Shown piece after piece: positions 5,813 to 22,205 of a stretch of 64,000 nucleotides of DNA. The DNA comes from an uncultured bacterium. GTDB taxonomy: Bacteria; Methylomirabilota; Methylomirabilia; Methylomirabilales; JACQHM01. The notes below the pieces were generated by a model, which ran no database searches, was not told where the DNA came from, and saw nothing but the letters and a program-made list of their open reading frames with translations. The translations under genes and the position numbers were made by a program. The stretch spans positions 7,758-71,757 of the forward strand of contig CAZHST010000013.1 of assembly GCA_964535215.1 (NCBI GenBank). The letters are read 5' to 3'. Position 1 is the stretch's first letter, and every line of letters starts with the position of its first letter.

Positions 5813-6775
5813 TCATCCCCTTCCAACCGCTGCCTGGGAGAGGAGAAGGCCTGCCCGCCGGCTCCTCTCCATGGTCCACCGCTTTTTCAGCTCCTGCCAC
5901 GGAGCAACATACCGTTCCAGGGAGACTTCGCCAGGGGAGGCTTTGACCTCGTCCACGACCCCTCGATAGAATCGGACCAGGTCCCTAACCAGCTCTACGG
6001 ATCGCTCCCTCCCTTGGATTTTCAGGTACTCAACCCCTGCCTTGATGTACCCGGGCACCTCCCACAGCATGAAGGTTGGATCGGATCGTAAGGTGGTCTT
6101 TCTTAGCGTCCCCTCGGGGGAAAGGGTGAACTCCCATCCTGCCTGACAGACCCGGGAACAGCCTCTGGCCCCCCGGTTGGCGCTCCCGAGAAAGCCCTCC
6201 TCGATCCCATCAGACCAGTCTTTGTAGACAAGATAGCTGGACATGATGCACTTCCCCGGGCAGACGAGCCCCCCTTGAAGGGGTTGGAAGAGAAAGACCT
6301 CAAGTCCCACATCCAGTTCGGCCTTGATCGCTCTAACCTCCTCGACGCTCAAGCGGTAGGGGAGGATCACGAAGGTCGCGCCCAGATCCCGGTAAAACCG
6401 GATATCCTCCCGGTTTGTCAGACCGCAGCCGACACTGGTATGGATGCCAATAAAGGGGAAGTGGCGCCTCACCTCCACCAGGCACCCTGGATCGGCGATC
6501 ATGAGCCCTGAGACCCCCCAGTCCACGTACTGCTCCACCTTCTTCAAGAGAAGCTTCATCTCCGTCGGACCAGGCATGGCGTTGATGGCGACCTTCACCT
6601 CCCGCCCAAGGGTCCGGGCGAACTCGTTCAGCTCCTTGATCTCCCCATCCTTCAGATCCAGCTGGTAGGATCGCCGACTCCATCCAAAGGCCCCCACGTA
6701 GACAGCCTCGGCCCCCTCCTCCAAGACCGTGTAGGCCATCTCCAGGGTCCCACCAGGAGCCAGAAGCTTCGCCAT
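5813..6775 (-). CDS. U32 family protein, UbiU-like paralog 2
   Basis: LLAPGG, GAEAVYVG..GWSRR, VCPGKC...SANRGARGCSRVC and LKIQGRER; SD gaggagg. Confidence 0.85.
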   Translation of the reverse strand: MAKLLAPGGTLEMAYTVLEEGAEAVYVGAFGWSRRSYQLDLKDGEIKELNEFARTLGREVKVAINAMPGPTEMKLLLKKVEQYVDWGVSGLMIADPGCLVEVRRHFPFIGIHTSVGCGLTNREDIRFYRDLGATFVILPYRLSVEEVRAIKAELDVGLEVFLFQPLQGGLVCPGKCIMSSYLVYKDWSDGIEEGFLGSANRGARGCSRVCQAGWEFTLSPEGTLRKTTLRSDPTFMLWEVPGYIKAGVEYLKIQGRERSVELVRDLVRFYRGVVDEVKASPGEVSLERYVAPWQELKKRWTMERSRRAGLLLSQAAVGRG

Positions 6776-6785
6776 GGTTTCCTCC

Positions 6786-7742
6786 TCACGCCTTTGCCCG
6801 GGCGATAAGGCGCTCGTCCCGTCTGTTCCGCTCGGTGATCCATCGCCTTTTCAGTTCCTCGATCTCTGGAACGTACCTTTCAGGAGAGAACCCATCGGGA
6901 GAGGTCAGGATCTCATCCACCACCTTCCGGTAGAACCGGACGATGTCCCGGACGAGGGTCTCGGACCGGTCCCTCCCGGGAACCTTGAAGTACTCAACGC
7001 CCGCCTTGATGTAATCGGCCAGCTCATGGAACCAAAGGCGGGGGTTCCCCTTCAGGATGGTCTTCCTGGAGAGGGGTTGATCGTCCGTGGCCACATCCCA
7101 CCCGACCTGGCAGATCCGGAGACAGTCCCCGCCCCGGTTGGCGCTCCCGTAGAAGTAATCCTTCCCCTCGGCATCCACCCAATGCCTGAAGCTGAAGTAG
7201 CTCGACATGGTGCATTTCCCGGGGCAGATGATCCCCCCTTGGGTGTCCGTCCTGAAGAGGAAGATCTCCAGGCCCACATCAATCGTCTGCTTGATCGCCT
7301 TGACCTCCTCCAGCCACATCCGGTAAGGGAGGATGATGTAGGTGGCCCCCATGTCCTTGTAGAATTTGACGTCCTCAGCGTTTGTCAGACCCGTCCCGAC
7401 GCTGACGTGGATCGCGATCTCGGGGAAATGTTTCCTGACCTGGACCAGGCAGCCGACATCCGAGATCATGAACCCGGAGACCCCCCAGCCGATATACCGG
7501 TCCACCTTCTTCAGGAGGAGGGGGATCTCCGTAGAACTCGGCATCGTGTTCAGGACCACCCTGACCTCCTTCCCTTTGGTCTCGGCGAAGGCCACCAGAT
7601 CCCGGATCTCCTCGTCTTTCAGCTCTACGTCAGAGCCCCGCCGACTCCATCCCAAGACGCCGACGTAGACGGCATCGGCCCCTTCCTCCAACACCGAGTA
7701 GGCCATCCGCATCGTCCCACCAGGGGCCATCAACTTCGACAT
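6786..7742 (-). CDS. U32 family protein, UbiU-like paralog 3
   Basis: LMAPGG, GADAVYVG..GWSRR, ICPGKC...SANRGGDCLRIC and FKVPGRDR. Confidence 0.85.
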   Translation of the reverse strand: MSKLMAPGGTMRMAYSVLEEGADAVYVGVLGWSRRGSDVELKDEEIRDLVAFAETKGKEVRVVLNTMPSSTEIPLLLKKVDRYIGWGVSGFMISDVGCLVQVRKHFPEIAIHVSVGTGLTNAEDVKFYKDMGATYIILPYRMWLEEVKAIKQTIDVGLEIFLFRTDTQGGIICPGKCTMSSYFSFRHWVDAEGKDYFYGSANRGGDCLRICQVGWDVATDDQPLSRKTILKGNPRLWFHELADYIKAGVEYFKVPGRDRSETLVRDIVRFYRKVVDEILTSPDGFSPERYVPEIEELKRRWITERNRRDERLIARAKA

Positions 7743-7759
7743 GGTCTTCCCTCCCTTCT

Positions 7760-8686
7760 TCAGGATCGTGTGCCCTGAAGCAGAAGCTCACGGCCGATAT
7801 AGTCCTGCCCGGATCTCCCGAAGGAGTAGCCGTTGCAGAAGCCTAACGGGGCTAGGGATCGAAGCTCTGTCAACCAGTGAGGGGTGCAGAACTCCTCTCC
7901 CGCCATGGCCCTTTGGAGGGCCTCGCGGTAGATGCCCCCGACCATCTTCACGTAACCAGGATCTTCACCCAGGGTATGGATGTAGAAGGTGTCAAAGCCC
8001 TGTTTCACGAGGAGGTCCAGGTGTTCCAGCAGGCAGAGGTCCTTCCCGCTCAAGTTGACCCTCCCGATGTTCTTCATGTGCCACTCCTCGTGGGTCAGCC
8101 AATGCCCCTGGGCACAACCCTCCTCGCAGTGGGCGGGGACTTTTTTCGTGTATTCGGTGAGGAAGCAGGTGGCCGAGATCACCAGGGGGATCTTGCCGTG
8201 GAGGGGGAGGATGACCTGGATAGGGGTATGATCCCTGATGTAGAGGATCTCCTCCAGGCTGAGCTCAGCGTTCGGGAAGACCCGCACGACCCCGTAGCCT
8301 TTCAGGACCCTGGCCGTCTCGTCGGTGTAGAGGTTGCCGAAGACCCCTAAATGGATAGGGATCTCACCCCTGAGTTCCCTGACGATCCTCAAAAGCCCCA
8401 TGCTGTGGACCTCAATGCCATCAAGGGGGAGGTCTCTCGACTCCTGCACAAGGACCCTAATCCAGGGAAGATCGCTGTCCTTCGGGATCGCATAAAGACT
8501 CAAGTAGCATTTCTTACCCATGGCCTTCACCCGGTAGACCCCTTCTCGGAGCTCTTGGAGGCACGAGCTGAAGTTGCCGGGGTAGAGGGGGCAGGTGAAG
8601 TCGCCCAGGTAGAGGGCGTCATAGGCTGAAAAGTCATAGGCTTGGAGCTTCTCCATGTTGGGGACATGGGTCGCTAACTCAAACAT
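7760..8686 (-). CDS. U32 family protein, UbiV-like
   Basis: LYLGDFTCP resembles UbiV YLGE.VC; HGKIPLVISATCF...HCEEGC resembles UbiV G.LPLA.S.RCF...C..CC. Confidence 0.75.
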   Translation of the reverse strand: MFELATHVPNMEKLQAYDFSAYDALYLGDFTCPLYPGNFSSCLQELREGVYRVKAMGKKCYLSLYAIPKDSDLPWIRVLVQESRDLPLDGIEVHSMGLLRIVRELRGEIPIHLGVFGNLYTDETARVLKGYGVVRVFPNAELSLEEILYIRDHTPIQVILPLHGKIPLVISATCFLTEYTKKVPAHCEEGCAQGHWLTHEEWHMKNIGRVNLSGKDLCLLEHLDLLVKQGFDTFYIHTLGEDPGYVKMVGGIYREALQRAMAGEEFCTPHWLTELRSLAPLGFCNGYSFGRSGQDYIGRELLLQGTRS

Positions 8687-8762
8687 TGTCGCCTCCTCCA
8701 GGATTTTTCGCCCTGTTTAGAGCAGGGATCACCAGCCTTTATAGGTTAGCCTATAGGGAGTG

Positions 8763-8777
8763 GCAAATACTGTTCCA
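8763..8777 (-). promoter_or_regulatory. Sigma-54 (-24/-12) promoter for the U32 operon
   Basis: Minus strand reads TGGAACAGTATTTGC (GG-N10-GC), about 77 nt upstream of the ATG at 8686. Confidence 0.7.
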
Positions 8778-8860
8778 TACCTAACCGGAGAAGGCTGATG
8801 CATCTGGATTATTTTGGTAGTGAAGATGTCCTAAAGGCAGAGGGGAAGAAGGGAAGAGAA

Positions 8861-8894
8861 TGGGGCATTTGACCAACAAGGGCATTTCACCCAC
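8861..8894. promoter_or_regulatory. Putative tandem upstream activator sites for an NtrC-family enhancer-binding protein
   Basis: tggggcatttgacca (8861-8875) and caagggcatttcacccac (8877-8894); both resemble sites at 20724-20757. Confidence 0.55.
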
Positions 8895-8934
8895 CCTTCG
8901 TTTCAATCTGAAATCTAAAATCCCCTGCCCGCAG

Positions 8935-9642
8935 TTAGAGGAGATTATATCTGAAGGCAAGGACGAGGGCTTCGAGTTTGGTATGCACCCCAAGCTTTCC
9001 CAGGATCCTCTGGGTGTGATTCCTCGCGGTGGCTGTGCTGATGTGGAGGGCTTCGGCGATCCCCTTGGCGGTTTCACCCCTGGCGATGAGCCTCAAGACC
9101 TCCTGCTCACGAGGGGTCAGGGCCCGAAGCGGGGAAGGAGGGTCTAAAGGGCGGGCCGGTTCCTTCTGAACCAACAAGGTGGCTTGACCGAGGAGGGTAT
9201 GGATCCGTTCCAGGAGCCTCTCCGTCGCCACGTGGTTGGTGACATCTCGGAAGAGGTGGACCATAGTGAACAGGTCCGGAGACATGGATGGAACGACAAT
9301 GACGCTCACATTGATCCAGATCGTCCGGCCTGTCTTGGTTCGGGTCAGGAGGTCGCTCGTCTCGACAGGTTCCCCTTTCTTCGCCGTTTCAAGGAGAGGG
9401 CACCCTGGACCACATAGCCGTTGCCCGGTGCGGCTCCTCCCGCCAAAGATCTCATAGCAGGGCTTCCCGAGCACCTCGCCGGCCTGGTACCCCAGGAGCC
9501 GCTCGGCCGCCTGGTTCCAAAGGATGACCCGCTGGGTCTGGTCAATGGCGAAGGCACCATCGGCAGCCCTCATAAACATCTCCAGAATGGCGGGGAGGCC
9601 ACCTCCGATGCCAGGGGACTTCTCGTTGACGGCCTGACGCAA
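8935..9642 (-). CDS. PAS domain plus LuxR-type HTH transcriptional regulator
   Basis: N-terminal PAS (AFAID...WNQAAERLLGY...GKPCYEIF); C-terminal LTPREQEVLRLIARG...IAEAL.IS..TARNH...ILGKLGV. Confidence 0.88.
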   Translation of the reverse strand: MRQAVNEKSPGIGGGLPAILEMFMRAADGAFAIDQTQRVILWNQAAERLLGYQAGEVLGKPCYEIFGGRSRTGQRLCGPGCPLLETAKKGEPVETSDLLTRTKTGRTIWINVSVIVVPSMSPDLFTMVHLFRDVTNHVATERLLERIHTLLGQATLLVQKEPARPLDPPSPLRALTPREQEVLRLIARGETAKGIAEALHISTATARNHTQRILGKLGVHTKLEALVLAFRYNLL

Positions 9643-9656
9643 GACCTTCTCCTTTC

Positions 9657-10457
9657 CTAGATCCCCCCCCGGCTCAGCCGGACGAGTTTGGCCTCTTTAT
9701 CGAAGAGGGCCGTGGCGGCCAGGAGCATGGTGGCACTGAAGACGGAAAGGGCCATGAGATCTACCAGGACGGGGAGATCCGCTTCCATAGGGGTCAGGGT
9801 GGCATGGGGGAGGAGGACATGCTTGAAGAGGTCGATCCCGTAGGTGAGGGGATTCAGGTACATAGGGATCTGGAGCAGATCCGGGAGCAGCTTCACCGGG
9901 TAGAGGCCCCCGCTTAAGAAGAACATGGGGAAGACAACGAAGTTCATGATGGTGGCGAAGTTCTCCAGGGAGTCGATCCTCGTCGCCATCAGCATCCCCA
10001 GCGAGGCAACGGCGAAGGAGGTGAGAAAGAGGAAGAAGAGGAGCAGGAGGAGCTGGAGGGGGCCAACCGGGAGCCTCAAGAACGGGACGAGGATCAAGAG
10101 GAGGAGGGCCTGGAAGACGGCCAGCAGGGTACCTCCCATGACCTTTCCCAGAACGAGGGTTAGGCGGGAGACGGGGGCGATCAGCATGATCCTGACAACC
10201 CCGAACTCCCGATCGTAGACGGTGGAGAGGGACGAGAGCATGGCGCCGAAGAGGACGACGATCCCCAGGACGCCAGGGAAGAGGAACTGCTGGTAGGAGA
10301 TCCCTCCCTCCCCACCGAGGAGCCGATCGAAGCCAGGACCGACGATGAAGAGCCAGAAGAGGGGGCGGGCGAGGGAGCTCCACAAACGACCCTTTTGGCG
10401 GAAGAACCGCTTGAATTCCCGGAGGACGATTACCGAGAGCGGCTTCAGCTGAAGCAT
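9657..10457 (-). CDS. ABC-2 type transporter permease (PedC/DrrB-like)
   Basis: Multiple hydrophobic segments; YDREFG, FPMFFLSG.LYP and NPLTYGID motifs; ATG 10457 overlaps the upstream TGA. Confidence 0.85.
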   Translation of the reverse strand: MLQLKPLSVIVLREFKRFFRQKGRLWSSLARPLFWLFIVGPGFDRLLGGEGGISYQQFLFPGVLGIVVLFGAMLSSLSTVYDREFGVVRIMLIAPVSRLTLVLGKVMGGTLLAVFQALLLLILVPFLRLPVGPLQLLLLLFFLFLTSFAVASLGMLMATRIDSLENFATIMNFVVFPMFFLSGGLYPVKLLPDLLQIPMYLNPLTYGIDLFKHVLLPHATLTPMEADLPVLVDLMALSVFSATMLLAATALFDKEAKLVRLSRGGI

Positions 10458-10969
10458 CACTGCTGGGCCAGGTCCTTCATCAACGCGTCGATCCCTGCTT
10501 GGCAGGCCTGAGCGTCCTGATCCCCCCGGGCGCCGCTGGCCCCGCACCCTCCAATCACCGTCCCTCCCACGATAATGGGGAGGCCTCCTTCGAGGATCAT
10601 CACCCGGTCGAGGTGCTGGATGCCGTAGGCCCGTCCGTCAGGCCGGGCGATGTCCTGCAGGGCCTTCGTCGGACGCTGGAAGAAAACGGCGGTCGCTGCT
10701 TTCCTGATGGCGACTTCGATGGAGCCGAGGAAGGCGTCGTCCATTCGTTGGAAGTAGACCAAGTTGGCCCCATCGTCCACGATGGCGATGTTCAGCTTCC
10801 AGCCGTTTCTGATCGCCTCCAGTTCAGCGGCAGCGGCTACCTTCTTGGCAGCTTCCAGGGTGAGGGCCTTCTTCTCCCTAAGTTGCGCATGGCCAGGTTG
10901 AGCCAGGGCTAAGGCAAGGGCCAGAACAATACAGCCCCCGACGAACCACCGTAGACCTCTTCTCATCAT
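10457..10969 (-). CDS. GlcG/HbpS family heme-binding protein with a Sec signal peptide
   Basis: IAIVDDGANL...RMD, A..KA.TA and GGLPII.....IGG.GASGA...QD motifs; signal peptide ending AQPGHA. Confidence 0.85.
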   Translation of the reverse strand: MMRRGLRWFVGGCIVLALALALAQPGHAQLREKKALTLEAAKKVAAAAELEAIRNGWKLNIAIVDDGANLVYFQRMDDAFLGSIEVAIRKAATAVFFQRPTKALQDIARPDGRAYGIQHLDRVMILEGGLPIIVGGTVIGGCGASGARGDQDAQACQAGIDALMKDLAQQ

Positions 10970-11006
10970 TCTCCCTCCTTAAGGTTAAGGTTTCACGGTT
11001 CTTGTC

Positions 11007-11921
11007 CTATCGAATCGCCCGCCCCGTTAGGTGGATGAAGACTTCGTTCAGGGAAGGCCGGGTAATGTTGATGGCCAGGATCTTTCCACCAAAGCTGCTT
11101 AAGAGACGGGGGAGGAGGGTCTCGGCGGAGTCCACCTCCAGGAAGAGACCGTCCTGGGTCCGCTTCGTCACCACCGCGAACTGCCTCCGGATTTCATCCT
11201 CCACCCTGGCATCGTCAGTCGTCTTCAGGTGGATGACCTCCCCTTTGATCGTCCGCTTCAGCGTCTCCGGGGTTCCCAGGGCGATGATCCTCCCGTGGTC
11301 GATGATCGCAACCCGGTCGCATCGCTCCGCCTCATCCAGGTAGTGGGTGGTCAGGAAGATGGTCATGTGCTCCTGTTCCCGCAGCCGGTTAATCAGGTCC
11401 CAGATCGCAACCCGGGCCTGCGGGTCTAATCCGAGGGTGGGCTCATCGAGGAAGAGGATCCTCGGGCGGTGGAGGAGACCTCTGGCGAGATCCACACGCC
11501 GTTTCAGGCCTCCCGAGAGGGTCTTGACCAGGGCATCCCTTCGATCCGTTAGCTCCAGAACCTTCAGGGTCTCCCCGATCCGTTCCCGGGCCTCATGGCG
11601 CTTCATGTTGTAGAGGTAACAGGTAAGGAGGAGGTTCTCCTGTACGGTCAGGTCCTTGTCAAGGGTCGTCTCCTGGAAGACAAGGCCGATGGCGTTTCGG
11701 ACATGACGGGCCTCGGTTGTGCAGTCATATCCGTTGACTTTAGCCGATCCGGATGTCGGCTTCAAGAGGGTGCACAGCATATGGATGGTCGTGGTCTTGC
11801 CGGCGCCGTTTGGTCCCAGGAAGCCGAAGAACTCCCCGGCCTTGACCTCAAAGGTCACGCCGTCCACCGCCGTGGTGGCTCCAAAGCGCTTCACCAACCC
11901 TTTAGCCTCGATTGCCAGCAC
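11007..11921 (-). CDS. ABC transporter ATP-binding protein (DrrA/PedB-like)
   Basis: Walker A GPNGAGKT, signature LSGG, Walker B LFLDEPT, and LTTHY. Confidence 0.92.
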   Translation of the reverse strand: MLAIEAKGLVKRFGATTAVDGVTFEVKAGEFFGFLGPNGAGKTTTIHMLCTLLKPTSGSAKVNGYDCTTEARHVRNAIGLVFQETTLDKDLTVQENLLLTCYLYNMKRHEARERIGETLKVLELTDRRDALVKTLSGGLKRRVDLARGLLHRPRILFLDEPTLGLDPQARVAIWDLINRLREQEHMTIFLTTHYLDEAERCDRVAIIDHGRIIALGTPETLKRTIKGEVIHLKTTDDARVEDEIRRQFAVVTKRTQDGLFLEVDSAETLLPRLLSSFGGKILAINITRPSLNEVFIHLTGRAIR

Positions 11922-11989
11922 CGCTTTTCCCCGAGGTGGAGAAGGGGTTGTCTGGAGGTCGTCCGTCCAAGCCCCGCGGGAGGGTTGCC

Positions 11990-13477
11990 CTACAAGAGAC
12001 CGAGGGAGACGAACTTCACCTCGAGGTACTCCTCGATCCCCCAGTGGCCTCCTTCCCGGCCGAGGCCGCTCTGTTTGACACCCCCGAAGGGGGCCTGAAC
12101 GGTTCCGGGGAGGGGATCGTTCACCCCGACGATCCCGTACTCCAGCCGCTCGGCCACCCGGATGGCCCGGGATAGGTCCTTCGTGTAGAAGAAGGCGGCA
12201 AGGCCGGAGGGGAGGGCGTTGGCGAAGGAGAGGACCTCTTCCTCGGTCCTGAACGGGACGATGGGCACCACCGGCCCGAAGGTCTCCTCCTGCATGATCC
12301 GCATCTCGTGGGTGACTTGGGTGAGGACCGTCGGCTCATAGTAGTAGCCCTTCGCAAACTCCCCATCCTCCCGACGCCCTCCGCCGCAGAGGAGCTTGGC
12401 CCCTTTCGAGAGGGCTTCCTCCACATGATGCTTCACCTTCAGGAAGCCCCGCCTATCAATTAACGGCCCGACCTGCACGCTTTCATCCAGAGGATTTCCC
12501 ATCTTGAGCCCGTTCACCAGCTTCACGAAATGACGGGTGAAAGGCTCCACCACCGCCTCATGGACGTAGATCCGGTTGGTGCAGATGCAGGTCTGGCCCG
12601 TATTCCGGAACTTCGACAGCAAAGCTCCTCTGGCGGCTGCCTCGAGATCGGCATCCTCGAAGACGATGAAGGGGGCATGACCACCCAGCTCCAGGGTGAT
12701 CCTTTTCACCTGATCGGCGGCTCCCCGCATGAGAAGCCTCCCGACCTCTACCGACCCGGTGAAGTTCACCTTCCGGACCAAGGGGTTCTCCAGGAACTCC
12801 CGCCCGATCTCCTCCGGCTCAAAGGCCGTGACCAGATTCGCGACCCCGGGTGGCAGCCCAGCCTCTTCCAGAAGCTCGAAGATCGCGATGGCGGAAAGGG
12901 GAGTTTGCTCAGCCGGTTTCACCACCACCGTGCAGCCCGCGGCAAGGGCAGGGGCCAGGGGCCTTGTGATCCCGGCTGAGGGGAAGTTCCAGATGGTGAT
13001 GATGGCGGCCACCCCCACAGGGCGTTTCAGCACGAGGAGACGCTTGCCCGGGGAGGAGGCCGGGATCACCTCGCCATAGACCCTTTTCGCCTCCTCGGCG
13101 AACCATCCGAGGAAATCGGCCGCGTAGAGGATCTCCCCCCGGGCCTCCGTGATTGGTTTGCCCTCCTCAAGGGTGAGGAGTTGGGCCAACTCCTCTTTAT
13201 GGTCCAGCATCAGGTCCCGGGCTTTGAAGAGAATGGTGGCCCGATCTTTGGGGGGGAGGTCGGCCCATGACGGGAACGCCCGTTGAGCGGCCTCGATGGC
13301 CCGGCGGGTCTCCTCCCGACCGGCCCAGGGGACCTGGGCGATCACCTCACCGGTGGCAGGGTTTTCAACCGAGAAGGTCCGACCTGAATCGGCCTCGACC
13401 CATCGGCCCTCAATGAACATCCGCCAGGTTTTGACCTCCCCCTTTGAAACAAGAGCCCGGGCGCTCTCCATCGTCAT
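11990..13477 (-). CDS. NAD(P)-dependent aldehyde dehydrogenase (GabD/SSADH-like)
   Basis: FTGS.EVG, LELGGHAP (catalytic Glu), NTGQTC (catalytic Cys), EETFGP and PFGG.KQSG; start at ATG 13477 (ATGA overlap). Confidence 0.92.
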   Translation of the reverse strand: MTMESARALVSKGEVKTWRMFIEGRWVEADSGRTFSVENPATGEVIAQVPWAGREETRRAIEAAQRAFPSWADLPPKDRATILFKARDLMLDHKEELAQLLTLEEGKPITEARGEILYAADFLGWFAEEAKRVYGEVIPASSPGKRLLVLKRPVGVAAIITIWNFPSAGITRPLAPALAAGCTVVVKPAEQTPLSAIAIFELLEEAGLPPGVANLVTAFEPEEIGREFLENPLVRKVNFTGSVEVGRLLMRGAADQVKRITLELGGHAPFIVFEDADLEAAARGALLSKFRNTGQTCICTNRIYVHEAVVEPFTRHFVKLVNGLKMGNPLDESVQVGPLIDRRGFLKVKHHVEEALSKGAKLLCGGGRREDGEFAKGYYYEPTVLTQVTHEMRIMQEETFGPVVPIVPFRTEEEVLSFANALPSGLAAFFYTKDLSRAIRVAERLEYGIVGVNDPLPGTVQAPFGGVKQSGLGREGGHWGIEEYLEVKFVSLGLL

Positions 13478-13890
13478 GTCCTGTCCTCGGGGCAAGCCTG
13501 GGATTCCAGAAGCCCTTTTAGGAGGGCCAGCTCCTTCCTCACGTTGCCGATCAGGGTTTCGAACTGCCCGGGCGGGGCGCCAGGAGGCTCGAACTGGGTG
13601 AAGGTATAGACGACCCCGTCATCATTTTCCAAGAGCCGGGATGGGGAGGACCGGTACTTCCCTTCTGTCCCGTAGTAGAAATCGATCACACCGGTTTCTT
13701 TGTCGCTTTTCACGAACAGGTCCAGCTCCCCCCGGGGGGTCTGGACCTTGTAGATCTCGCCGGCCCTTGTGGGGGGGGCGAGGGCGAAGTCCACGGTCCA
13801 GAGGTGGAGGTTTTCGGGATTCGCGATGAACTGGAAGGCCTTCTCGAAAGAGGTCCGAATGGAGACACTTAAGGTTTCTGACCGTCGCAC
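13474..13890 (-). CDS. SRPBCC/START-like small ligand-binding protein
   Basis: 138 aa; F.FIANPENL..W motif and a C-terminal helix typical of SRPBCC folds; sits in the operon. Confidence 0.6.
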   Translation of the reverse strand: MRRSETLSVSIRTSFEKAFQFIANPENLHLWTVDFALAPPTRAGEIYKVQTPRGELDLFVKSDKETGVIDFYYGTEGKYRSSPSRLLENDDGVVYTFTQFEPPGAPPGQFETLIGNVRKELALLKGLLESQACPEDRT

Positions 13891-13913
13891 GGGAGCCTCG
13901 ACACTCGTACCAG

Positions 13914-14861
13914 TTACGAAACGAGGGATGTGGTGAAGGTCCCTGAGGGGATATGGTCAACCCCTAGGACCTCCTTCCCACCGACCTTCAGGAGCTCGTC
14001 GAAGAGGCGGTGGATGCCCCTGATGGTCTCCTCATCCCACCCGGTCATGACCATCTCCCGCCACCCATCCCGGATGGCGTGGACCAGCCGGGGGTCAGCC
14101 CCCTCCATCATCTTCTCGCCGAGTTCCTCCCAGATCTGATCGTTCCGCTTCATATACCCGGCCACCTCCCGGAAGGCCCCGATGAAGCCCCGGAGGAGAT
14201 CCGGGCGCTCTTCAACCACTTCCTCCCGGGTGACGAAGGCCGAGATCGGGATCCTCTCTTTTGTCCCGGCCAACTCCTGCACAAGCTCGACCATGTCAAC
14301 GACCTTCCGGTACCGGCCGGTGAACAGGAACACGGGCACATACTGCCAGAAGAGGAGGGCGCCGTCCACCTCGCCTCTCTCCAGGGCATGGTTCAGCCTC
14401 GATTTCGAGAGGGCCTCGACGACGATCGCCTCCTCCTGGGGATCGAAGCGGTAGAGCTTTCGGCAAGCGGCCCGGGTGACTACCCAGTTCTTGTCATGAA
14501 TCCGGACGACGCCGATCCGTTTCCCCCGGATGTCAGGGAGGGTGTGGATCGGGGATCCGTTGGGGACGATGAGACTTCCGATGGTCTGGCCGTACGGAAA
14601 GAAGGACGTGATCGGTAGGCCTTTGGCCCGTTCCCGGGCGATGGAGATCCAGTCAATATCGATGAGATCAGCCTCCCCCTTCTGGAGGGCCAGCTCGACA
14701 GACTCCAAAGCCTGCTGGACCTGATCAACGGCATATTTGATCTCCAGCTTGAATCCGTGCTTTCGATCCACGCCGAGCTTCTGAATCGTGTACATGACGA
14801 AACGAGGGGTCCCTGTCGTCTCGAAGGCCCCCCGCAAGATTGGGAGAGTTTCGCGGCCCAT
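13914..14861 (-). CDS. NMT1/THI5/SsuA-like PBP-fold protein with no signal peptide (paralog 2)
   Basis: Closely parallels 4855-5811 (DIDWISIAR, KNW..TR.ACRKLY.FDPQEE, IP.GTFT); ATG 14861 with SD ggaggagga. Confidence 0.75.
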   Translation of the reverse strand: MGRETLPILRGAFETTGTPRFVMYTIQKLGVDRKHGFKLEIKYAVDQVQQALESVELALQKGEADLIDIDWISIARERAKGLPITSFFPYGQTIGSLIVPNGSPIHTLPDIRGKRIGVVRIHDKNWVVTRAACRKLYRFDPQEEAIVVEALSKSRLNHALERGEVDGALLFWQYVPVFLFTGRYRKVVDMVELVQELAGTKERIPISAFVTREEVVEERPDLLRGFIGAFREVAGYMKRNDQIWEELGEKMMEGADPRLVHAIRDGWREMVMTGWDEETIRGIHRLFDELLKVGGKEVLGVDHIPSGTFTTSLVS

Positions 14862-14895
14862 TCCTCCTCCTTTGAGCACCATGGATCCGGGTTTC

Positions 14896-16530
14896 CTACC
14901 GCTCCTTCGGTTTGAAGGTCACCTCCATCATTGAACCAAGCAGCCTGACCTCGACACTCCCGAGCCATCGCTTGTCCTGGAAAGGATGATCGTCCCGGTA
15001 ATGGGGCCCCCGGCTTTCCTCCCGTGTCAGGGCCGACACCGTGACCGCTTCAGCCACCACGCACATCCCCTGGAGGGTCCGATGGTGGAGCCACTCCTTC
15101 GGGTTCCGGATGGCGCATCCTTCCAGGAAGGATCGGCAGGCCTGGATCTCTTCCTGGGCCTTCCTGAGGGAGGCGCCGGAGCGGAAGAGGCCAACCTGTT
15201 CCCACATGATCCGGCGGAGGTGGGCTTCAACCTCTGGCAGGGAGGCCTCTCCGGGCCGCCGGTGGAACTCCAAGGGCGAAACCGGTGTCGGGATTGACCG
15301 CCTGGTCCTGGCGTAGAGAGCGGCCTCCCGTCCCGCTAAGGCCCCTGAGACCTGGGTGTGGGCGACGGCATTCCCCCCGAAGCGCTTCGCCCCGTGCACG
15401 CCTCCAACGGCCTCGCCGGCGGCGTAGAGACCGGGGATTTCAGTCCTCCCTCTGGTCTTCACCTTGACCCCCCCGGTGAACAGATTGGCCCGGACCCCAA
15501 CCACCAAAAAATCCTTTCGAGGATCGATGCCGTTCCGGAGGAGGGCGTCGAACAAGAAGGGGTACCGGTCCCGCCAAACCTCCATGGGGATAGCTGTGGC
15601 GTCCAGGTAGATCCCCCCGTCAACACCCCGGCCCTCCGCGACCTCTTTCAACAAGAGCCTTGGCATCTCCTCCCGGAACGAGGCCTCCTCCCCGAGAGGG
15701 TTATGCGGGAGGATGAAGCGCTCGCCCAAGACGTTCCTCAAGACCCCACCAAAGCTGAAGAGATCAGGGGGGAGATTCGTTTCCAGAGATTGAGGGCGGA
15801 GGAGGCGACAGGGGTTGAACTCGACGAACTCCATGTCCTTGATGGTTGCCCCAACGTCCAGGGCAAGGGTGTAGGAGTCCCCCGTCAGATCCTGGCTGTT
15901 CGAGGTGACCGCATAGAGCCATCCGGCCCCACCGGTGGCCAGGATCACGGCCCGGGCCGGCAGAAAGACGACCTCGCCTGTTGTGGTATCGAAGCCAAAG
16001 GCCCCCCCTACTTCCCCATCATACCGGAAAAGCTTCACGATGGGGAGGTGATTGATCAGGGTGACCCCCAAACGCCGGGCCTGTTCAGCCAAGGGCCGGG
16101 TCAGGGAAGATCCCCTGACCGAAAACCCGTACCCGGTATAGTCAGGTTCGATCCCTGAGGGGAGGAGGGCCCCATCGCCCCGGCCGAGGAGAAACCCTCC
16201 CTTTTTCCTATGCAACTTCACCCCCAGGGCTTCAAGGGCCAGGATCTCCTTCCCGGCATGGGTCACCAGCTCTTCGACCAGGGCCTCATCGTTCAAAAAC
16301 TTCCCAACGGCCATCGTATCCTTGAAGTGGACCTCCACCGCCTCGGGAGGGTCTGTAGGAAGGGCAGCAATCATGGAGCAGCCAGCGTACATGGTGCTCC
16401 CGCTCCGTCCGGCCTCCTCTTTACAGACCAGGACCACATCGTCCACGAGCTTCTTCGCCTCGATGGCCGCCCGGAGGCCGGCCCCCCCTCCACCAACCAC
16501 GAGGACATCACAGGGTTCAAGGATTCGCAT
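14896..16530 (-). CDS. FAD-dependent oxidoreductase, SdhA/FrdA/NadB flavoprotein superfamily (stand-alone)
   Basis: VVGGGGAGLRAA, VILATGG, TGD, GLYAAGE..GGVHGA.R.GGN and A..REESRG.HYR.D.P motifs. Confidence 0.85.
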   Translation of the reverse strand: MRILEPCDVLVVGGGGAGLRAAIEAKKLVDDVVLVCKEEAGRSGSTMYAGCSMIAALPTDPPEAVEVHFKDTMAVGKFLNDEALVEELVTHAGKEILALEALGVKLHRKKGGFLLGRGDGALLPSGIEPDYTGYGFSVRGSSLTRPLAEQARRLGVTLINHLPIVKLFRYDGEVGGAFGFDTTTGEVVFLPARAVILATGGAGWLYAVTSNSQDLTGDSYTLALDVGATIKDMEFVEFNPCRLLRPQSLETNLPPDLFSFGGVLRNVLGERFILPHNPLGEEASFREEMPRLLLKEVAEGRGVDGGIYLDATAIPMEVWRDRYPFLFDALLRNGIDPRKDFLVVGVRANLFTGGVKVKTRGRTEIPGLYAAGEAVGGVHGAKRFGGNAVAHTQVSGALAGREAALYARTRRSIPTPVSPLEFHRRPGEASLPEVEAHLRRIMWEQVGLFRSGASLRKAQEEIQACRSFLEGCAIRNPKEWLHHRTLQGMCVVAEAVTVSALTREESRGPHYRDDHPFQDKRWLGSVEVRLLGSMMEVTFKPKER

Positions 16531-16549
16531 CGAACATCCAACAGGAAGG

Positions 16550-17512
16550 TCAGTCGAGGGTATTCGGGGCAAACAGTTCTTCAGGGACAAGCTTCTTTTC
16601 GATCAGATGCTGCTCGTAGAGATACTGGAGATAGGTTTCAAGGACGTGGCGATTGGCCTTCAGGCCGTAAGGCCAAAAGTCCTGCCCCATCTCCTTCCAG
16701 AGGTCGTCCATGTAGTAATCCAGCCACGGGACGGTATATTTCAGAGCTTCCATCGTCTCCTTGAGATCCTGGTAACAGACCTCTTTCGCCTTGACGAAGG
16801 CCCGGTAGAGGCTGCTAGCCACCCATGGATGCTGTTCGTAAACCGATTCCTTAATGACAACCATGTGCAGGATCGGAAAGATCCCTGTCCGCTTGTAATA
16901 CTCCGCCTCAACGGCTTTCGGGTTGGCGAAAAGCCGTTTCACGGAGGGGTGCTGGTTTCTGAACTTGGGCGGGACCCGGGGGGCGATCAGGGCATCAATC
17001 TCCCCGTCCTCCAACCGGTCAGGCAGCATCTTCCCCGGAGGGAAGAGGGTGACCCTTATCTCCTTGGGGAGGTCGAGGCCGACCTCGGCCCGCGCCGTGT
17101 ACCACTCGATGGTGGTCAAATCGACGCCATAGTCCTGCTTGAGGATCCCCCTAGCCCACACGGCGATGGACATCTGGTACTGGCCGGAGGCAACCCGCTT
17201 CCCCTCCAGGTCTTTTGGTTTCTCGATCCCAGCCTTCGTGTTGACGAAGATGCCCCCATGAGGAAAGGCCCTGGCCAGGAAGACAGGGATGGCGATGTAA
17301 GGAGCCTCCCCCCTGGCCCGGAGCATGGTGTAGGTTGCCAGGGTCATCTCTGAGGCGTCGAATTCCTGAAAGCGGACCATAGGCCACACCGAGTCATCGG
17401 GCGTATACGGCAGGATGTTTAGGTCAATGCCGGCCGGTTCGACGACCTTGAGCATCAGGGGTTTGACCCGGTCATAGTCCAAGCAGGCCAGGGTCAGCGG
17501 GAGTTTCGCCAT
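16550..17512 (-). CDS. 4,5-dihydroxyphthalate decarboxylase-like PBP-fold protein
   Basis: MAKLPLTLACLDYDR N-terminus; FDASEM, AIPVF..RAF.H and YY..TGIFPI.H.VVI motifs; no signal peptide. Confidence 0.75.
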   Translation of the reverse strand: MAKLPLTLACLDYDRVKPLMLKVVEPAGIDLNILPYTPDDSVWPMVRFQEFDASEMTLATYTMLRARGEAPYIAIPVFLARAFPHGGIFVNTKAGIEKPKDLEGKRVASGQYQMSIAVWARGILKQDYGVDLTTIEWYTARAEVGLDLPKEIRVTLFPPGKMLPDRLEDGEIDALIAPRVPPKFRNQHPSVKRLFANPKAVEAEYYKRTGIFPILHMVVIKESVYEQHPWVASSLYRAFVKAKEVCYQDLKETMEALKYTVPWLDYYMDDLWKEMGQDFWPYGLKANRHVLETYLQYLYEQHLIEKKLVPEELFAPNTLD

Positions 17513-17532
17513 GGATCTTCTCCTCCTAACCG

Positions 17533-18561
17533 TTAGGTGGCAGGGACGAGCTCCTCCCTGGAAGCCCCTTTAAAATACGGCATGACAAACTTGGCAAACC
17601 GTTCCATGGACCTGAGGCAACGATCATGGTCCATCGTGACGAAGTTTAAGGTGCAGAGGAGATATGTCAGGCCGATCTCACGCTTCAGTTCCTCAATCTT
17701 CGCGATGCAGGTGTCGGGAGAACCGAAGATGCAGAAATCGTTCAGAAACCGTTCGAAGCTCAAGTTTCCCTCCCCATACCTCTGGCAGAGGGCGGCTTTC
17801 AGATCCGGGGCCTTTTCGTGGATGAAGGCCATAAAGGGACCCTCCACTTCCTCCCGGGCTTTCCGGTCTGTCTCAGCGACATAGAGAAAGCGATTCACCG
17901 GGAGCTCCACCCTGGTCCCGTTATGCCCGGCTTGCTTGTAGGTCTGCCAGTAGAGGTCGAGGGTCCTCTTTAGATCAGGGAGTCGCTGGATCGCTCCGAT
18001 AAAGATAGGGTATCCTCGCAAGGCGGCGTACCGGATTGTCTCTGGCGAGATGGCGACAACGTAAATGGGCGGATGAGGCTTCTGGAAGGGCTTCGGATGA
18101 ACGGACACCTCGGGGATCTTGTAGTACTTCCCCTCATAGGAGAAACGGTTGGTGGTCCAGGCCTGGAGGATCACCTCTAGGGCCTCTTGGAAACGCCCCC
18201 TGGTCTCTTCAAGGGGGACGTGAAAGGCCTGGTGAAATCCCTCATCCAAACCTGCCCTGGTCACCCCAAGATCGAGCCTCCCCCCGCTTAAGATATCCAG
18301 CGTCGCCGCATCTTCAGCGACATGGAGCGGATGGTCGAGGGGGAGGATCTTTGCCGCGGTCCCGATCCTGATCCTGGAGGTCTTGGCGGCAATGGCCGCC
18401 CCCACGTTGAACGGAGAAGGATAGAGGAGGTGGCTGTGGCGGAAGTGCCGCTCTCCCAGCCAGACCCCGTCGAAGGCGAGTTCCTCCGCATACTGGATCT
18501 GATCCAGGATATCATGGTAGGTCCCGGTCCGCGTTCCCATGATGAACAGGCCACACTTCAT
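17533..18561 (-). CDS. LLM class flavin-dependent oxidoreductase (paralog 1)
   Basis: AEEL.FDGVWLGERHF, TSRIRIGT, HPLHVAED.ATLD.LSGGRLDLG and P.QKPHPPI motifs; start moved to ATG 18561 (SD). Confidence 0.88.
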   Translation of the reverse strand: MKCGLFIMGTRTGTYHDILDQIQYAEELAFDGVWLGERHFRHSHLLYPSPFNVGAAIAAKTSRIRIGTAAKILPLDHPLHVAEDAATLDILSGGRLDLGVTRAGLDEGFHQAFHVPLEETRGRFQEALEVILQAWTTNRFSYEGKYYKIPEVSVHPKPFQKPHPPIYVVAISPETIRYAALRGYPIFIGAIQRLPDLKRTLDLYWQTYKQAGHNGTRVELPVNRFLYVAETDRKAREEVEGPFMAFIHEKAPDLKAALCQRYGEGNLSFERFLNDFCIFGSPDTCIAKIEELKREIGLTYLLCTLNFVTMDHDRCLRSMERFAKFVMPYFKGASREELVPAT

Positions 18562-18630
18562 CGGCAGATCCCCTGATCTACAACACGATGCTGGACGTAG
18601 AAAACAGCCCTCCCAGCGGGCATCCGACAC

Positions 18631-19638
18631 CTAACAGCCTTTCCTAAGGTAGGGCATCACATAATTTACGAACCGCTCCATGGACCTCTGGCACTTCTGA
18701 TGGTCGATCGTGTAGTAGTTAAAGGTACAGATCAGGTACCGGAGGTCAATTTCCTCACCAAGCTTCTCAAGACGGGCGATGCAGTAGTCAGGATCCCCAA
18801 AGATACAGACCTCGTTGAAGAGAAGGTCATACGTGATCTCTTCCCGGGGGAGGAAGAGGAAATCTCGGATGACGGAACCGCCCCGGTGGATGAAGGCGGT
18901 GAGGGCCTCCTGGGTGTCCTCGATGGCTTGCTCATTGGTTTCAGCGACGTAAAGGAATCGGTTCACGGGGAGGATCACATCCTCCCGTTTGTACCCGGCT
19001 TCTTCAAGGGCCTTGTAATAATACTCCTGGGTCTCCCTGACAACAGAGACGGTTTGGGCGGCGGCGAGGATCAAGGGGAAACCGCGGGTCGCCCCAAAGG
19101 CCAAGGTCTGGGGGCTGATGCCAACGAGATAGATGGGTGGATGAGGTTTTTGGACTGGCTTTGGGTAAACCGATACCTCAGGGATCCTATAGTAGTTCCC
19201 GTTGTAGGAAAAGCGCTCTTTTGTCCAGGCCAGGAGGAGGATATCCAAAGCCTCCTCAAAACGCTCCCGGCTCTGATCGGTGGTCACGCCGAAAGCCAGT
19301 TGGTAAAGGTCGTTCTCCCCAACCCGAGCGATTCCGAGATCCAGACGTCCATTGCTGATCACATCCACCGTGGAGGCATCCTCGGCAACGTGGATGGGAT
19401 GGTCCAGGGGAAGGATGCGTGAAGCGATGCCGATCCGGATGCGCTCTGTCCTGCCGGCGATGTACGCCGCCGCTACCAGGGGAGACGCGAAGAAGTTCCG
19501 GCCCTGGTGGTCAGGGTGGAAATGGCGTTCACGAAGCCACACGCTATCAAAGCCGGCCTCTTCAGCGTACTCGACCTGGCTCAGGAGATCCGCATAGCTT
19601 GCCGAACCAGACCCTGTTGCGTAAAATCCAAATTTCAT
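18631..19638 (-). CDS. LLM class flavin-dependent oxidoreductase (paralog 2)
   Basis: AEEAGFDSVWLRERHF, TERIRIG, HPIHVAED and P.QKPHPPI motifs; ATG 19638 with SD aaggag. Confidence 0.88.
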   Translation of the reverse strand: MKFGFYATGSGSASYADLLSQVEYAEEAGFDSVWLRERHFHPDHQGRNFFASPLVAAAYIAGRTERIRIGIASRILPLDHPIHVAEDASTVDVISNGRLDLGIARVGENDLYQLAFGVTTDQSRERFEEALDILLLAWTKERFSYNGNYYRIPEVSVYPKPVQKPHPPIYLVGISPQTLAFGATRGFPLILAAAQTVSVVRETQEYYYKALEEAGYKREDVILPVNRFLYVAETNEQAIEDTQEALTAFIHRGGSVIRDFLFLPREEITYDLLFNEVCIFGDPDYCIARLEKLGEEIDLRYLICTFNYYTIDHQKCQRSMERFVNYVMPYLRKGC

Positions 19639-19667
19639 GGATCGTCTCCTTTTTGGCGTTTGAACCC

Positions 19668-20540
19668 TCACCTTGCCCGGTCGGGGAAGTCGCGATTCCT
19701 CACCTTAACCTTGATCTTCTTCACCTCCTCAACGAAGGCGGCGAGATGAGCGGAAAGCTCCTCGAGGATCTTTCGGCCCTTCTCAGGGGTGGCCTGGGAG
19801 GGGAGGGGATCGTCGTGGGCGATGGGGCTGACGAATTCAAAGTCATCCATCCCGAGGAAGATGTTCTCCGCCCCCTGGAACCGGATCGCCATCCCGGTCC
19901 CGGCCCGCTTCGAGAAGGCTGGACCTAGCCACTCAGGTGCGTGGATACGATACGAATGGGCCATATATTCCTTGGAATTGAACTTCTCCCCCAAGAGGAC
20001 CATGGCCATGGCCGCCTCAAAATCACTGGCGAGACGCTCGGGGGAGGAGCCAAGGATACCCTGGACAGCTGCCGTCTCCCGTCCCCCATAGAAGGCCACG
20101 AAGGCCCCAGTTTTGAAACGAAGGGAAAAGAGGACCTCCTCAGCGTTTACCACGTTGAAACTGTGAAAGGACACAAAGATGATCTTGCTAAATCCATGAA
20201 AGATGAGGCTTCGGCCAATATCCTCCAGGACCCTTCGGTAAGTGTCCACCCTCAGGTTGATGGTCCCACACCCTTCGCCGACCCGGCCCATGTGGTGAGG
20301 GGCGTAGCCAAAAGGCATCAAGGGCGTGTAGAGAACATCGGCCCTCTTTGCCGCACGCTCGACCACGGCAAAGCTGACAATCCCATCAAGGCCCAAGGGG
20401 GTGTAAGGATTGCCGTGGCGCTCACAGCTTCCGATAGGGACGAGGATCGTCTCACAGCCCTCATCCAGCTTCCGTCTGATATCCCCCGATCCCAGTTCCT
20501 GGATATTCAGGATCTCTCCATCCTTCCTTTCGGTCGCCAT
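19668..20540 (-). CDS. Creatininase/creatinine amidohydrolase family protein (family that includes MftE)
   Basis: ILVPIGSCERHG...LGLD, P.MPFGYAPHH...GTI and SLIFHGF.KIIFVSFH motifs. Confidence 0.8.
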   Translation of the reverse strand: MATERKDGEILNIQELGSGDIRRKLDEGCETILVPIGSCERHGNPYTPLGLDGIVSFAVVERAAKRADVLYTPLMPFGYAPHHMGRVGEGCGTINLRVDTYRRVLEDIGRSLIFHGFSKIIFVSFHSFNVVNAEEVLFSLRFKTGAFVAFYGGRETAAVQGILGSSPERLASDFEAAMAMVLLGEKFNSKEYMAHSYRIHAPEWLGPAFSKRAGTGMAIRFQGAENIFLGMDDFEFVSPIAHDDPLPSQATPEKGRKILEELSAHLAAFVEEVKKIKVKVRNRDFPDRAR

Positions 20541-20654
20541 AGGCTATACCCTTTCCTTTGAAACGGTTTAATCCGGCTGGATCCTTTCAACAGGCCGCCT
20601 CCAGAAGCAACAGGCTCCCGGCAAGGCCTTTCAGGGTTTGAGGACAAAAGATTA

Positions 20655-20670
20655 AGCATACTTTGTGCCA
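20655..20670 (-). promoter_or_regulatory. Sigma-54 (-24/-12) promoter for the creatininase-to-LuxR operon
   Basis: Minus strand reads TGGCACAAAGTATGCT (GG-N10-GC). Confidence 0.75.
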
Positions 20671-20684
20671 GGGAGAAGGAGGGC

Positions 20685-20697
20685 TAAGTTCTTGAAT
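20685..20697 (-). promoter_or_regulatory. Possible IHF site between the sigma-54 promoter and the enhancer
   Basis: ATTCAAGAACTTA versus consensus WATCAANNNNTTR (one mismatch), in the expected position. Confidence 0.35.
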
Positions 20698-20723
20698 TTA
20701 AAGGGGACCATTGGACAAGGGGG

Positions 20724-20757
20724 TGGGGGATTTGGCAAAGTGGGTGAGATACCCCAC
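20724..20757. promoter_or_regulatory. Putative tandem upstream activator sites for an NtrC-family enhancer-binding protein
   Basis: tgggggatttggcaa (20724-20738) and the inverted repeat GTGGG-tgagatac-CCCAC (20740-20757). Confidence 0.6.
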
Positions 20758-20785: not shown

Positions 20786-22183
20786 TCAACGAGGTTTAGG
20801 GATCTTGAACTTCTTTAACCGGTAGCGGAGGGTATCGCGGGTGATCCCTAAAAGTCTTGCAGCCTCAACCTGGTTTCCCCCTGTCTGTTGGAGGGCCCGC
20901 TCGAGCAAGGCCCGCTCCCACTGGGGCAGGCTAATCCCCTCAGGGGGGATCCTCACCACAAGCTCGAGGGGGTTCATCGGCACGGGGGAGGGTTTCTGGA
21001 GCTGGGGGGAGGAGGTGAGGGAGAGGTGCTCCGGTTCAAGGGTCTCCCCCTGACAGGCGAGGACCGCCCGCTCCATGACATGTTTCAACTCCCGCACATT
21101 CCCCGGCCAGTGGTACTGGACCAGGGCCTTGGCCGCTCGGTCGCTGATCCGGGGGATCGGCTTCGCGTATTTGCTGCTGATCCGCTCCAGGAAATACTTG
21201 GCAAGGAGGAGGATGTCCTCCCCTCGCTGGCGAAGGGGAGGGAGGTGGATGGTAAAGACGGCTAAGCGGTAGTACAGCTCCTTTCTGAAGGATCCCTGGG
21301 CAATGGCCTCTTCCAGATGTTTGTTTGTTGCGGCGATGATTCGGGCATCGATCTTCCGATCCCGAAGGCTGCCGATCCGCCGGATCATCCGTTCCTCGAG
21401 GGCCCTTAAGAGCTTCCCCTGAAGGGGGAGCTCCAGGTCGCCGATCTCGTCCAGGAAGAGGGTACCTCCGTTGGCCGCCTCGAACAAGCCCATCTTGGAT
21501 TCCTTGGCATCGGTGAAGGAGCCCTTCTCATAGCCAAAGAGTTCTGCCTCGACCAAGGTTGCTGGCAGGGCGGTACAGTCGATCTCGATAAAAGGCGCCG
21601 ACGCCCGGGAGCTGTTCATGTGGATGGCCCGGGCCACAAGACCCTTGCCTGTTCCTGTCTCACCGGTGATGAGCACCGTGGAGACCTCCTCCAGGGAAGC
21701 GATCTGCCGGATCTGCTGAAAAACCCGTTGCATCTCCTCACACTTGCCGATCAGGCCTTCGAAGGAGAAGGTCCTCGTCTCCCGCTCACGGTAGTAGAAG
21801 AGCTCCTGTCTTAAACGGGAGTCTTCGTGGGCCCGGTTCAGCAGGATCTTCAGCTCGCCCAGGTCCACCGGTTTCTTCAGGTAATCGAAGGCCCCAAGCT
21901 TCATGGCCTCGACCGCTCCCTCGATGGAGCCGTAAGCCGTCATGACGACCACATACATGTGGGGGTCAAACTCCTTCATCCTCTTCAAGAGCTCAATCCC
22001 GCTGATCTTCGGCAACCTCACATCCAGAAAGACCAGATCGGGATGCATGGTCTCGAGAAGACTCAGGGCCTTCTCCCCATCCTCCGCCACCTCAGCCTCG
22101 TAGCCCTGTTCCTCCAGGAAAAGTTTGATGGATCGGGCCAGGGTTTTCTCATCGTCCACGATCAGGATCGTGAAAGGTCCCAT
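20786..22183 (-). CDS. Sigma-54-dependent response regulator (REC, AAA+, Fis-type HTH; NtrC/AtoC-like)
   Basis: REC LDVRLP, Walker A GETGTGKG, GSFTDA loop, LFLDEIG, WPGNVREL, and HTH AARLLGITRDTLRYRL; ATG 22183 with SD. Confidence 0.93.
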   Translation of the reverse strand: MGPFTILIVDDEKTLARSIKLFLEEQGYEAEVAEDGEKALSLLETMHPDLVFLDVRLPKISGIELLKRMKEFDPHMYVVVMTAYGSIEGAVEAMKLGAFDYLKKPVDLGELKILLNRAHEDSRLRQELFYYRERETRTFSFEGLIGKCEEMQRVFQQIRQIASLEEVSTVLITGETGTGKGLVARAIHMNSSRASAPFIEIDCTALPATLVEAELFGYEKGSFTDAKESKMGLFEAANGGTLFLDEIGDLELPLQGKLLRALEERMIRRIGSLRDRKIDARIIAATNKHLEEAIAQGSFRKELYYRLAVFTIHLPPLRQRGEDILLLAKYFLERISSKYAKPIPRISDRAAKALVQYHWPGNVRELKHVMERAVLACQGETLEPEHLSLTSSPQLQKPSPVPMNPLELVVRIPPEGISLPQWERALLERALQQTGGNQVEAARLLGITRDTLRYRLKKFKIPKPR

Positions 22184-22205
22184 GCCTCCTCCCAAGATTT
22201 TCTCC

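Follow-up and report, generated by a model that had tools for sequence, protein, structure and literature searches.

Two operons in a 64-kb stretch of DNA (the window) from an uncultured relative of methane oxidizers (NC10/Methylomirabilota), on contig CAZHST010000013.1, are each preceded by a -24/-12 promoter and by two tandem upstream sites. The first, called here the U32 operon, encodes four U32 paralogues, and the second, the flavoprotein operon, includes a fumarate-reductase-like flavoprotein. Their promoters lie ~12 kb apart. The closest genomes to the window are metagenome-assembled genomes of the Methylomirabilota (NC10). Judged on the sequences compared, the enhancer motif shared by both promoters is real and conserved in related genomes, and the whole is probably a genuine, conserved two-promoter sigma-54 regulon of NC10 bacteria with a newly defined enhancer motif. 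A putative enhancer-binding activator, encoded beside the flavoprotein operon, is the best candidate for both promoters, and it is considered moderately probable that this one protein serves both.

Promoters and enhancer sites of the two operons

Both promoters (A for the U32 operon, B for the flavoprotein operon) are intergenic and correctly oriented upstream of the first gene of their operon, in gaps of 248 bp and 245 bp, respectively. A sigma-54 promoter was defined by a match to TGGCAC-N5-TTGC, with exactly 10 bases between GG at -24 and GC at -12. Promoter A has two mismatches to the 16-mer consensus and promoter B has one. A preliminary description of this DNA had placed two such elements here, and their positions are right; on the minus strand they read TGGAACagtatTTGCC (8777-8762) and TGGCACaaagtATGCT (20670-20655). 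A sigma-70-like promoter was sought in both gaps and none was found. Over the whole window, matches to the sigma-54 consensus occur at chance level (19 observed versus 18.5 expected from shuffles). Both promoters are credible candidates for sigma-54 dependence.

Upstream of each promoter stand two tandem 16-mers, 17 bp apart from center to center. They fit the definition used for the enhancer of a sigma-54 promoter, namely at least two copies of a specific motif some 80-160 bp before the promoter at every target. The matches of 13/18 and 12/15 counted earlier between the two site pairs are arithmetically right, and the true distal and proximal sites had been paired with each other. The A and B site regions are colinear over 36 bp, with 24/36 positions identical by eye and 28/43 in a scored 43-bp alignment. 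The best local similarity of the two gaps was matched by 21 of 1000 shuffles (p ~0.02), and the pairwise matches, taken alone, are weak and not compelling.

The motif is accepted as real, and not as a product of chance, because of matrix tests across genomes. The loci from other genomes that were compared with the window are numbered L001 to L031, L013 being that of Candidatus (Ca.) M. lanthanidiphila. A weight matrix was built from eight flavoprotein-operon sites of L001, L011, L020 and L023, with none from the window, and both strands were scanned. Its top match in the window is the U32 site at 8861-8876, which scores 21.2 bits with an expectation of 0.0017 per 128 kb; the second-best match is the proximal site of the flavoprotein operon (20724-20739). 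This matrix scores U32 sites as high as the sites on which it was trained. With a second matrix of six sites, two of these from the window itself, the best match of the whole locus falls upstream of the U32 promoter in L013, L015, L026, L027, L028 and L029. The consensus derived from 26 sites at 13 promoters is TGGGKCAAATSMCCCA, with a spacing of 17-20 bp between sites in 12 of the 13 and centers between ~-75 and -157. The counterpart of distal site A in L001 is TGGGTGAATTCCCCTT. The features of the window are collected in Table 1.

Table 1. Predicted regulatory elements and genes of the window, with positions in nucleotides of the window.
Feature	Position	Strand	Remarks
-24/-12 promoter A, U32 operon, TGGAACagtatTTGCC	8762..8777	-	predicted +1 at ~8751; 65-nt leader to ATG 8686
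-24/-12 promoter B, flavoprotein operon, TGGCACaaagtATGCT	20655..20670	-	predicted +1 at ~20644; 104-nt leader
Proximal site A, TTGGTCAAATGCCCCA	8861..8876	-	center ~-117; conserved in L001; top matrix match in the window
Distal site A, TGGGTGAAATGCCCTT	8878..8893	-	center ~-134; weaker match; 11.4 bits with a matrix of L011 and L020 sites
Proximal site B, TTTGCCAAATCCCCCA	20724..20739	-	center ~-88
Distal site B, TGGGGTATCTCACCCA	20741..20756	-	center ~-105; begins 29 bp past the activator stop codon
Box CCAGATGCATCA	8796..8807	-	in the A/T-rich stretch between enhancer and promoter A; identical in L001
IHF-like box, ATTCAAgaacTTA	20685..20697	-	12/13 match to WATCAANNNNTTR; between enhancer and promoter B
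U32 operon	55..8686	-	U32, U32, U32, NMT1-like binding-protein fold, U32, phosphoenolpyruvate (PEP)-synthase/Rph-like dikinase, HisC-like aminotransferase
PAS-LuxR (GerE) regulator gene	8935..9642	-	last gene of the upstream cluster
Flavoprotein operon	9657..20540	-	11 genes; first gene creatininase-family
Activator gene	20786..22195	-	response-regulator enhancer-binding protein; REC, sigma-54 AAA+ and Fis-type helix-turn-helix (HTH)
Sensor histidine kinase gene	22206..23726	-	4HB_MCP sensor, HAMP, HisKA, HATPase; cognate kinase of the activator
Two xoxF-type clusters	23731..30622	-	each with a pyrroloquinoline quinone (PQQ) methanol/ethanol-family dehydrogenase, an SBP_bac_3 (XoxJ-like) protein and a cytochrome c

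Conservation of both promoters in related genomes

A search for homologues of the first U32 protein and of the activator yielded nine U32 loci. At eight of them (the window, L001, L013, L015/16, L026, L027, L028 and L029/30), the -24/-12 element is kept together with one or two copies of the motif, centered at ~-75 to -157. Promoter and sites stay with the U32 operon even where the flavoprotein operon is not nearby. The flavoprotein operon retains the element at all five of its loci, which are the window, L001, L011, L020/21 and L023. The 13 orthologous promoters are all intergenic and in the correct orientation, and T-26, GG, A-22, T-14 and GC are invariant among them.

The flavoprotein operon has the same surroundings in four other genomes, where a kinase-activator pair is followed by the same arrangement of sites and promoter. 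The flavoprotein is 81% identical to that of the window in L001, and the activator is 75% identical in L023, 71% in L020/21 and 70% in L011. In five genomes (the window, L001, L011, L020 and L023), the sites begin 4-45 bp past the activator stop codon. They are centered at -88 and -105 in four of the five promoters, and the promoter, of the form TGGCAY-N5-ATGC, is followed by a creatininase or luciferase-like gene. Scans of genome and metagenome contigs with the flavoprotein as query returned few close loci, a yield that cannot establish the absence of this operon from Methylomirabilis genomes.

The consensus of the DNA-bending protein IHF is WATCAANNNNTTR. The IHF-like box before promoter B has a conserved counterpart: four of the five flavoprotein-operon promoters have ATTCAA-N4-TTA in the corresponding place, and L020 has ATTTAA-N4-TTA. 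Among the U32 promoters, L013 and L029 contain perfect matches to the IHF consensus, and promoter A of the window has merely an A/T-rich stretch.

Some of the U32 loci show features of their own. In the gap of L022 (9709-10001), TAGTATagaaaTTAGC stands at the homologous position, with GG changed to AG, next to a degenerate site CAGGCAAGTGCCCCA; a box related to CCAGATGCATCA, CAGATGCAACTGCxTCAT, is duplicated there. L028 contains two identical 16-nt sigma-54 promoters, TGGCACAGGGCTTGCC, 3.5 kb apart (3051-3066 and 6607-6622). One follows an unrelated activator gene, precedes small open reading frames (ORFs) and an NrfD-like gene, and has no motif. The motif accompanies the other, which stands before the U32 operon. 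The length of the U32 leader ranges from ~60 nt to 150-250 nt, owing to lineage-specific insertions between promoter and start codon (L013 9745-10000; L026 2975-3159; L027 2471-2631).

The adjacent activator and its alternatives

By its domains and motifs, the activator belongs to the response-regulator class of bacterial enhancer-binding proteins, and it is the only enhancer-binding protein encoded in the window. It matches the Pfam families PF00072, PF00158, PF25601 and PF02954 and contains a Walker A (GETGTGK), a Walker B (LFLDEI) and an arginine-finger motif (FRKELYYRL). Translation probably starts at the ATG at 22183 and not at the TTG of the mechanically called ORF, because a 98% identical homologue (P0121) is 464 amino acids long. 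The best named families are AtoC for the activator (434 bits) and AtoS for the kinase (248 bits). An assignment to either was rejected, as the scores fall far under the equivalog cut-offs of 714 (AtoC, NCBIfam NF008469) and 646 (AtoS). The kinase gene begins 4 bp downstream of a cytochrome c-SBP_bac_3 fusion gene (23731-24600), which is the end of the second xoxF-type cluster. Because this gap is so short, kinase and activator may be co-transcribed with that cluster.

The gene neighborhoods link this activator family independently to both targets: to the flavoprotein operon in the five genomes described above, and to the U32 operon in L029/L030. In the latter, the nearest homologue of the kinase-activator pair in Methylomirabilis-type genomes is convergent with the U32 operon and directly adjoins it, with no flavoprotein operon there. 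The L029/L030 activator is 63-64% identical to that of the window; the kinase is colinear, with a sensor domain 41% identical. In L028, an activator gene lying 4 kb ahead of the U32 operon was considered as a regulator of that operon and rejected, since its product shares only 43% identity and differs in its HTH, and since its own promoter has no motif. The motif thus tracks this activator family and not any activator that happens to be nearby.

The activator gene of Methylomirabilis-type genomes is always followed by a small gene of the ArsP_1 permease family (L029 11467-11967; L017 9467-9970; L015 19050-19436). The same ArsP gene, 88% identical, lies at the contig end of L015. The kinase-activator-ArsP unit of L017 has no motif or promoter nearby and is uninformative about targets. 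Just past the activator stop codon, TGTGGCAGAT is found in both L029 and L024.

In the proposed mechanism, the kinase would sense a signal via its four-helix-bundle domain and phosphorylate the AtoC/NtrC-like activator, which would then oligomerize on the tandem abutting sites. Through DNA looping, the activator would contact sigma-54 RNA polymerase and open the promoter with ATP. Sites and promoter are separated by an A/T-rich stretch, which is IHF-like at the flavoprotein operon. By acting both at the neighboring flavoprotein operon and at the U32 operon, over a distance of 12 kb, the activator would induce the two enzyme sets together. The promoters, the sites, their conservation and the linkage of regulator and target genes are seen in the sequences, and we infer the binding, the sigma-54 dependence, the signal and the action of the same protein at both promoters. 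The mechanism would be classical, textbook enhancer-dependent activation of sigma-54 promoters, involving no new principle.

Several points weigh against this reading. The public sequencing runs that hold the window sequence are DNA metagenomes, with no RNA runs among them, and no rpoN gene is found within the window. One of the nine U32 loci, L022, has neither a sigma-54 promoter nor a good site. The loop of the activator predicted to contact sigma-54 (21506-21544, residues 218-230) reads GSFTDA instead of GAFTGA. A G[AS][FY]TDA loop is found in 120/120 top homologues of the activator, with F and T retained, and the aspartate at the fifth position is evidently a trait of the whole clade. In the sigma-54 regulome of Desulfovibrio vulgaris, GAFTDA and GSFTGA are each listed among the loop variants expected to retain activity (PMC4641369). 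The remaining points concern the identity of the protein at promoter A. U32 sites (AAATGCCCCA) and flavoprotein-operon sites (AAATCCCCCA) differ consistently by one base, G versus C at position 11, in the three genomes with both promoters (the window, L001 and L023/L026). The U32-linked activators of the Methylomirabilis type form a sister clade to those linked to the flavoprotein operon. These two clades could be paralogous, with a second copy elsewhere in the genome of the window.

The preliminary description had proposed that the adjacent NtrC-type regulator activates both operons. What stands of this is that the regulator is the best candidate, as the sites follow its gene in five genomes and a homologue adjoins the U32 operon. 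A close paralogue could act in its stead, since many family members are 60-70% identical and carry the same recognition helix, RDTLRYR(L/M)KKF.

The most serious alternative, although an unlikely one, is that both promoters are sigma-54 dependent and the adjacent activator drives only the flavoprotein operon. The U32 operon would then be under the control of a separate, unlinked paralogue, of the type that Methylomirabilis genomes have beside ArsP and the U32 operon, recognizing nearly the same site. The sister clades with their different linked targets, the recognition helix common to many close homologues and the consistent difference at position 11 are all in its favor, as is the presence of the sites at U32 operons that had no flavoprotein operon detected in their vicinity. 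Against it, the two clades occur together in no genome examined, and the identity between them (63-66%) equals that of the U32 proteins in the same lineages (66-67%), as for orthologues. The sensor domains of the kinases are also colinear and homologous, and the matrix of flavoprotein-operon sites scores the U32 sites like its own training sites.

A second alternative, which we regard as quite improbable, makes the PAS-LuxR protein the real regulator of the U32 operon and leaves the sigma-54-like and enhancer-like sequences there unused. The PAS-LuxR gene is the most conserved neighbor of the U32 operon, and the CCAGATGCATCA box lies before the promoter, with its relative duplicated in L022, the locus without a sigma-54 promoter. 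Unused elements, however, would not retain GG/GC and a 16-bp motif across lineages whose proteins are 66% identical. Moreover, promoter and sites are both present in L026, which lacks a PAS-LuxR gene, and the gap contains no detectable sigma-70-like promoter. The two inputs need not be exclusive, and the PAS-LuxR protein may modulate the sigma-54 promoter. The CCAGATGCATCA box is possibly a site for this adjacent regulator or for a DNA-bending protein. In the window, the PAS-LuxR gene seems to close the flavoprotein cluster. A feed-forward arrangement is also possible, in which the activator would switch on PAS-LuxR along with the rest of the cluster and the two proteins would then work together at the U32 promoter.

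That the sites are a chance similarity of G/C-rich sequence, or terminator hairpins of the upstream genes, is hardly credible: the chance-level number of sigma-54 consensus matches in the window, the modest p value for the gaps and the scoring of the distal U32 site as a weak terminator-like hairpin would fit it, but the low expectation with the cross-genome matrix and the position fixed at -88 relative to the -24 element in four of five flavoprotein-operon promoters argue against it, and the hairpin reading of the dyads was rejected because sequence, including a CAAAT core, is conserved and not pairing alone, and because proximal sites such as TTTGCCAAATCCCCCA are non-palindromic and no T-runs are present.

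Genomic context and relation to known regulons

Every gene from 55 to 30622 is on the minus strand, and the genes sampled to the right of 30.8 kb are housekeeping genes. The flavoprotein operon has intergenic gaps of at most 68 bp. It begins with the creatininase-family gene, two luciferase-like oxidoreductase genes, an NMT1-like gene, the fumarate-reductase-like flavoprotein gene and another NMT1-like gene. These are followed by genes for a 138-amino-acid unknown protein, an aldehyde dehydrogenase, an ABC ATPase, an HbpS-like protein and an ABC-2 permease (ABC exporter). In NCBIfam, the U32, luciferase-like, flavoprotein and creatininase-family proteins reach no family above threshold; the U32 proteins are UbiU/UbiV/TrhP-like by score, far under the family cut-offs. 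An Rfam scan of the whole window gave no leader RNA match.

The module of three U32 genes, NMT1-like gene, U32 gene, dikinase and aminotransferase is kept from NC10 to Aromatoleum evansii (L031 7550-16593). In the latter, aminotransferase and a dual-specificity phosphatase domain form one fusion protein, and the module has no sigma-54 promoter. Literature searches on U32 or sigma-54 in Methylomirabilis, and on U32 in Aromatoleum, found nothing relevant.

The shared promoter type had also been taken as evidence for placing the U32 operon in a quinoprotein island, a claim that is not borne out. No -24/-12 element was found upstream of the xoxF-type clusters (27446-27695 and 30623-30820), where every candidate has at least four mismatches, and the matrix scans gave no strong match in either gap. 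The adjacency of the regulator to these clusters is not conserved, as no PQQ-dehydrogenase gene adjoins it in L011, L020 or L023. Because the xoxF-type gaps and the neighborhoods are negative, the conserved linkage is taken to be that of the regulator with the flavoprotein operon and with the U32 operon, with no quinoprotein island.

A different link to quinoproteins is nevertheless worth stating, because Ca. M. oxyfera lacks PQQ biosynthesis genes according to a published report (PMC6094997), the regulator follows two xoxF-type clusters, and L024 has a pqqA-like gene. The regulon might serve to make or salvage, independently of oxygen, a redox cofactor for the neighboring xoxF methanol dehydrogenases, a reading to which we give little credence. 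The gene set concerned comprises four UbiU/UbiV/TrhP-like U32 proteins, a PEP-synthase-like dikinase, an aminotransferase, two luciferase-like oxidoreductases, the flavoprotein and an MftE-like creatininase-family protein. A scan of the window for pqqA-like ORFs found none. The kinase-activator pair of L024, whose activator is 69% identical, stands ahead of one motif-like site, TGTGGCAGATCCCCCG (11398-11413, center ~-106), and of a predicted sigma-54 promoter, TGGCATgctgtGTGCT (11486-11501). This promoter would drive a 27-amino-acid ORF of the PqqA family, MEWTTPEFAEVKMDAEINSYQDDFSGI (~11548-11631). The ORF matches TIGR02107 with 20.7 bits, against a cut-off of 20.

Among known systems, the regulon resembles AtoS-AtoC/atoDAEB of Escherichia coli in the REC-AAA+-Fis HTH architecture of the activator and in having a target operon beside the regulator gene. 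AtoC also uses two abutting upstream sites, as found at the window promoters. In contrast to AtoS-AtoC, the sites bear no resemblance in sequence to that of AtoC, the kinase has a four-helix bundle as its sensor, the predicted targets are the U32 and flavoprotein operons and not acetoacetate genes, and there is a second, distant promoter. With NtrB-NtrC/glnAp2, the window shares tandem sites at ~-90 to -150, GG at -24 and GC at -12, a response regulator expected to act in phosphorylated form and, as proposed here, several promoters per activator. The NtrC site is TGCACC-N5-GGTGCA. The window differs in its motif, its GSFTDA loop and the absence of a link to nitrogen genes, and its sites abut at 17 bp instead of lying about three helical turns apart. 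Similar reasoning underlies the sigma-54 regulons reconstructed by computation for Desulfovibrio vulgaris Hildenborough (PMC4641369), in which an activator gene lies beside a -24/-12 promoter and the family motif is then also found at distant operons. That regulome concerns another phylum, other motifs and other targets, and part of it had experimental support, whereas the regulon of the window is computational throughout.

For the uncultured NC10/Methylomirabilota lineage, these results would provide a first concrete regulatory unit, composed of a motif, two promoters and a candidate sensor-activator pair. This unit ties together two conserved, uncharacterized enzyme operons, and its value lies in annotation and in the guidance of experiments. 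The inducer of the U32 module, which extends from NC10 to Aromatoleum, would offer a practical handle on the role of that module.

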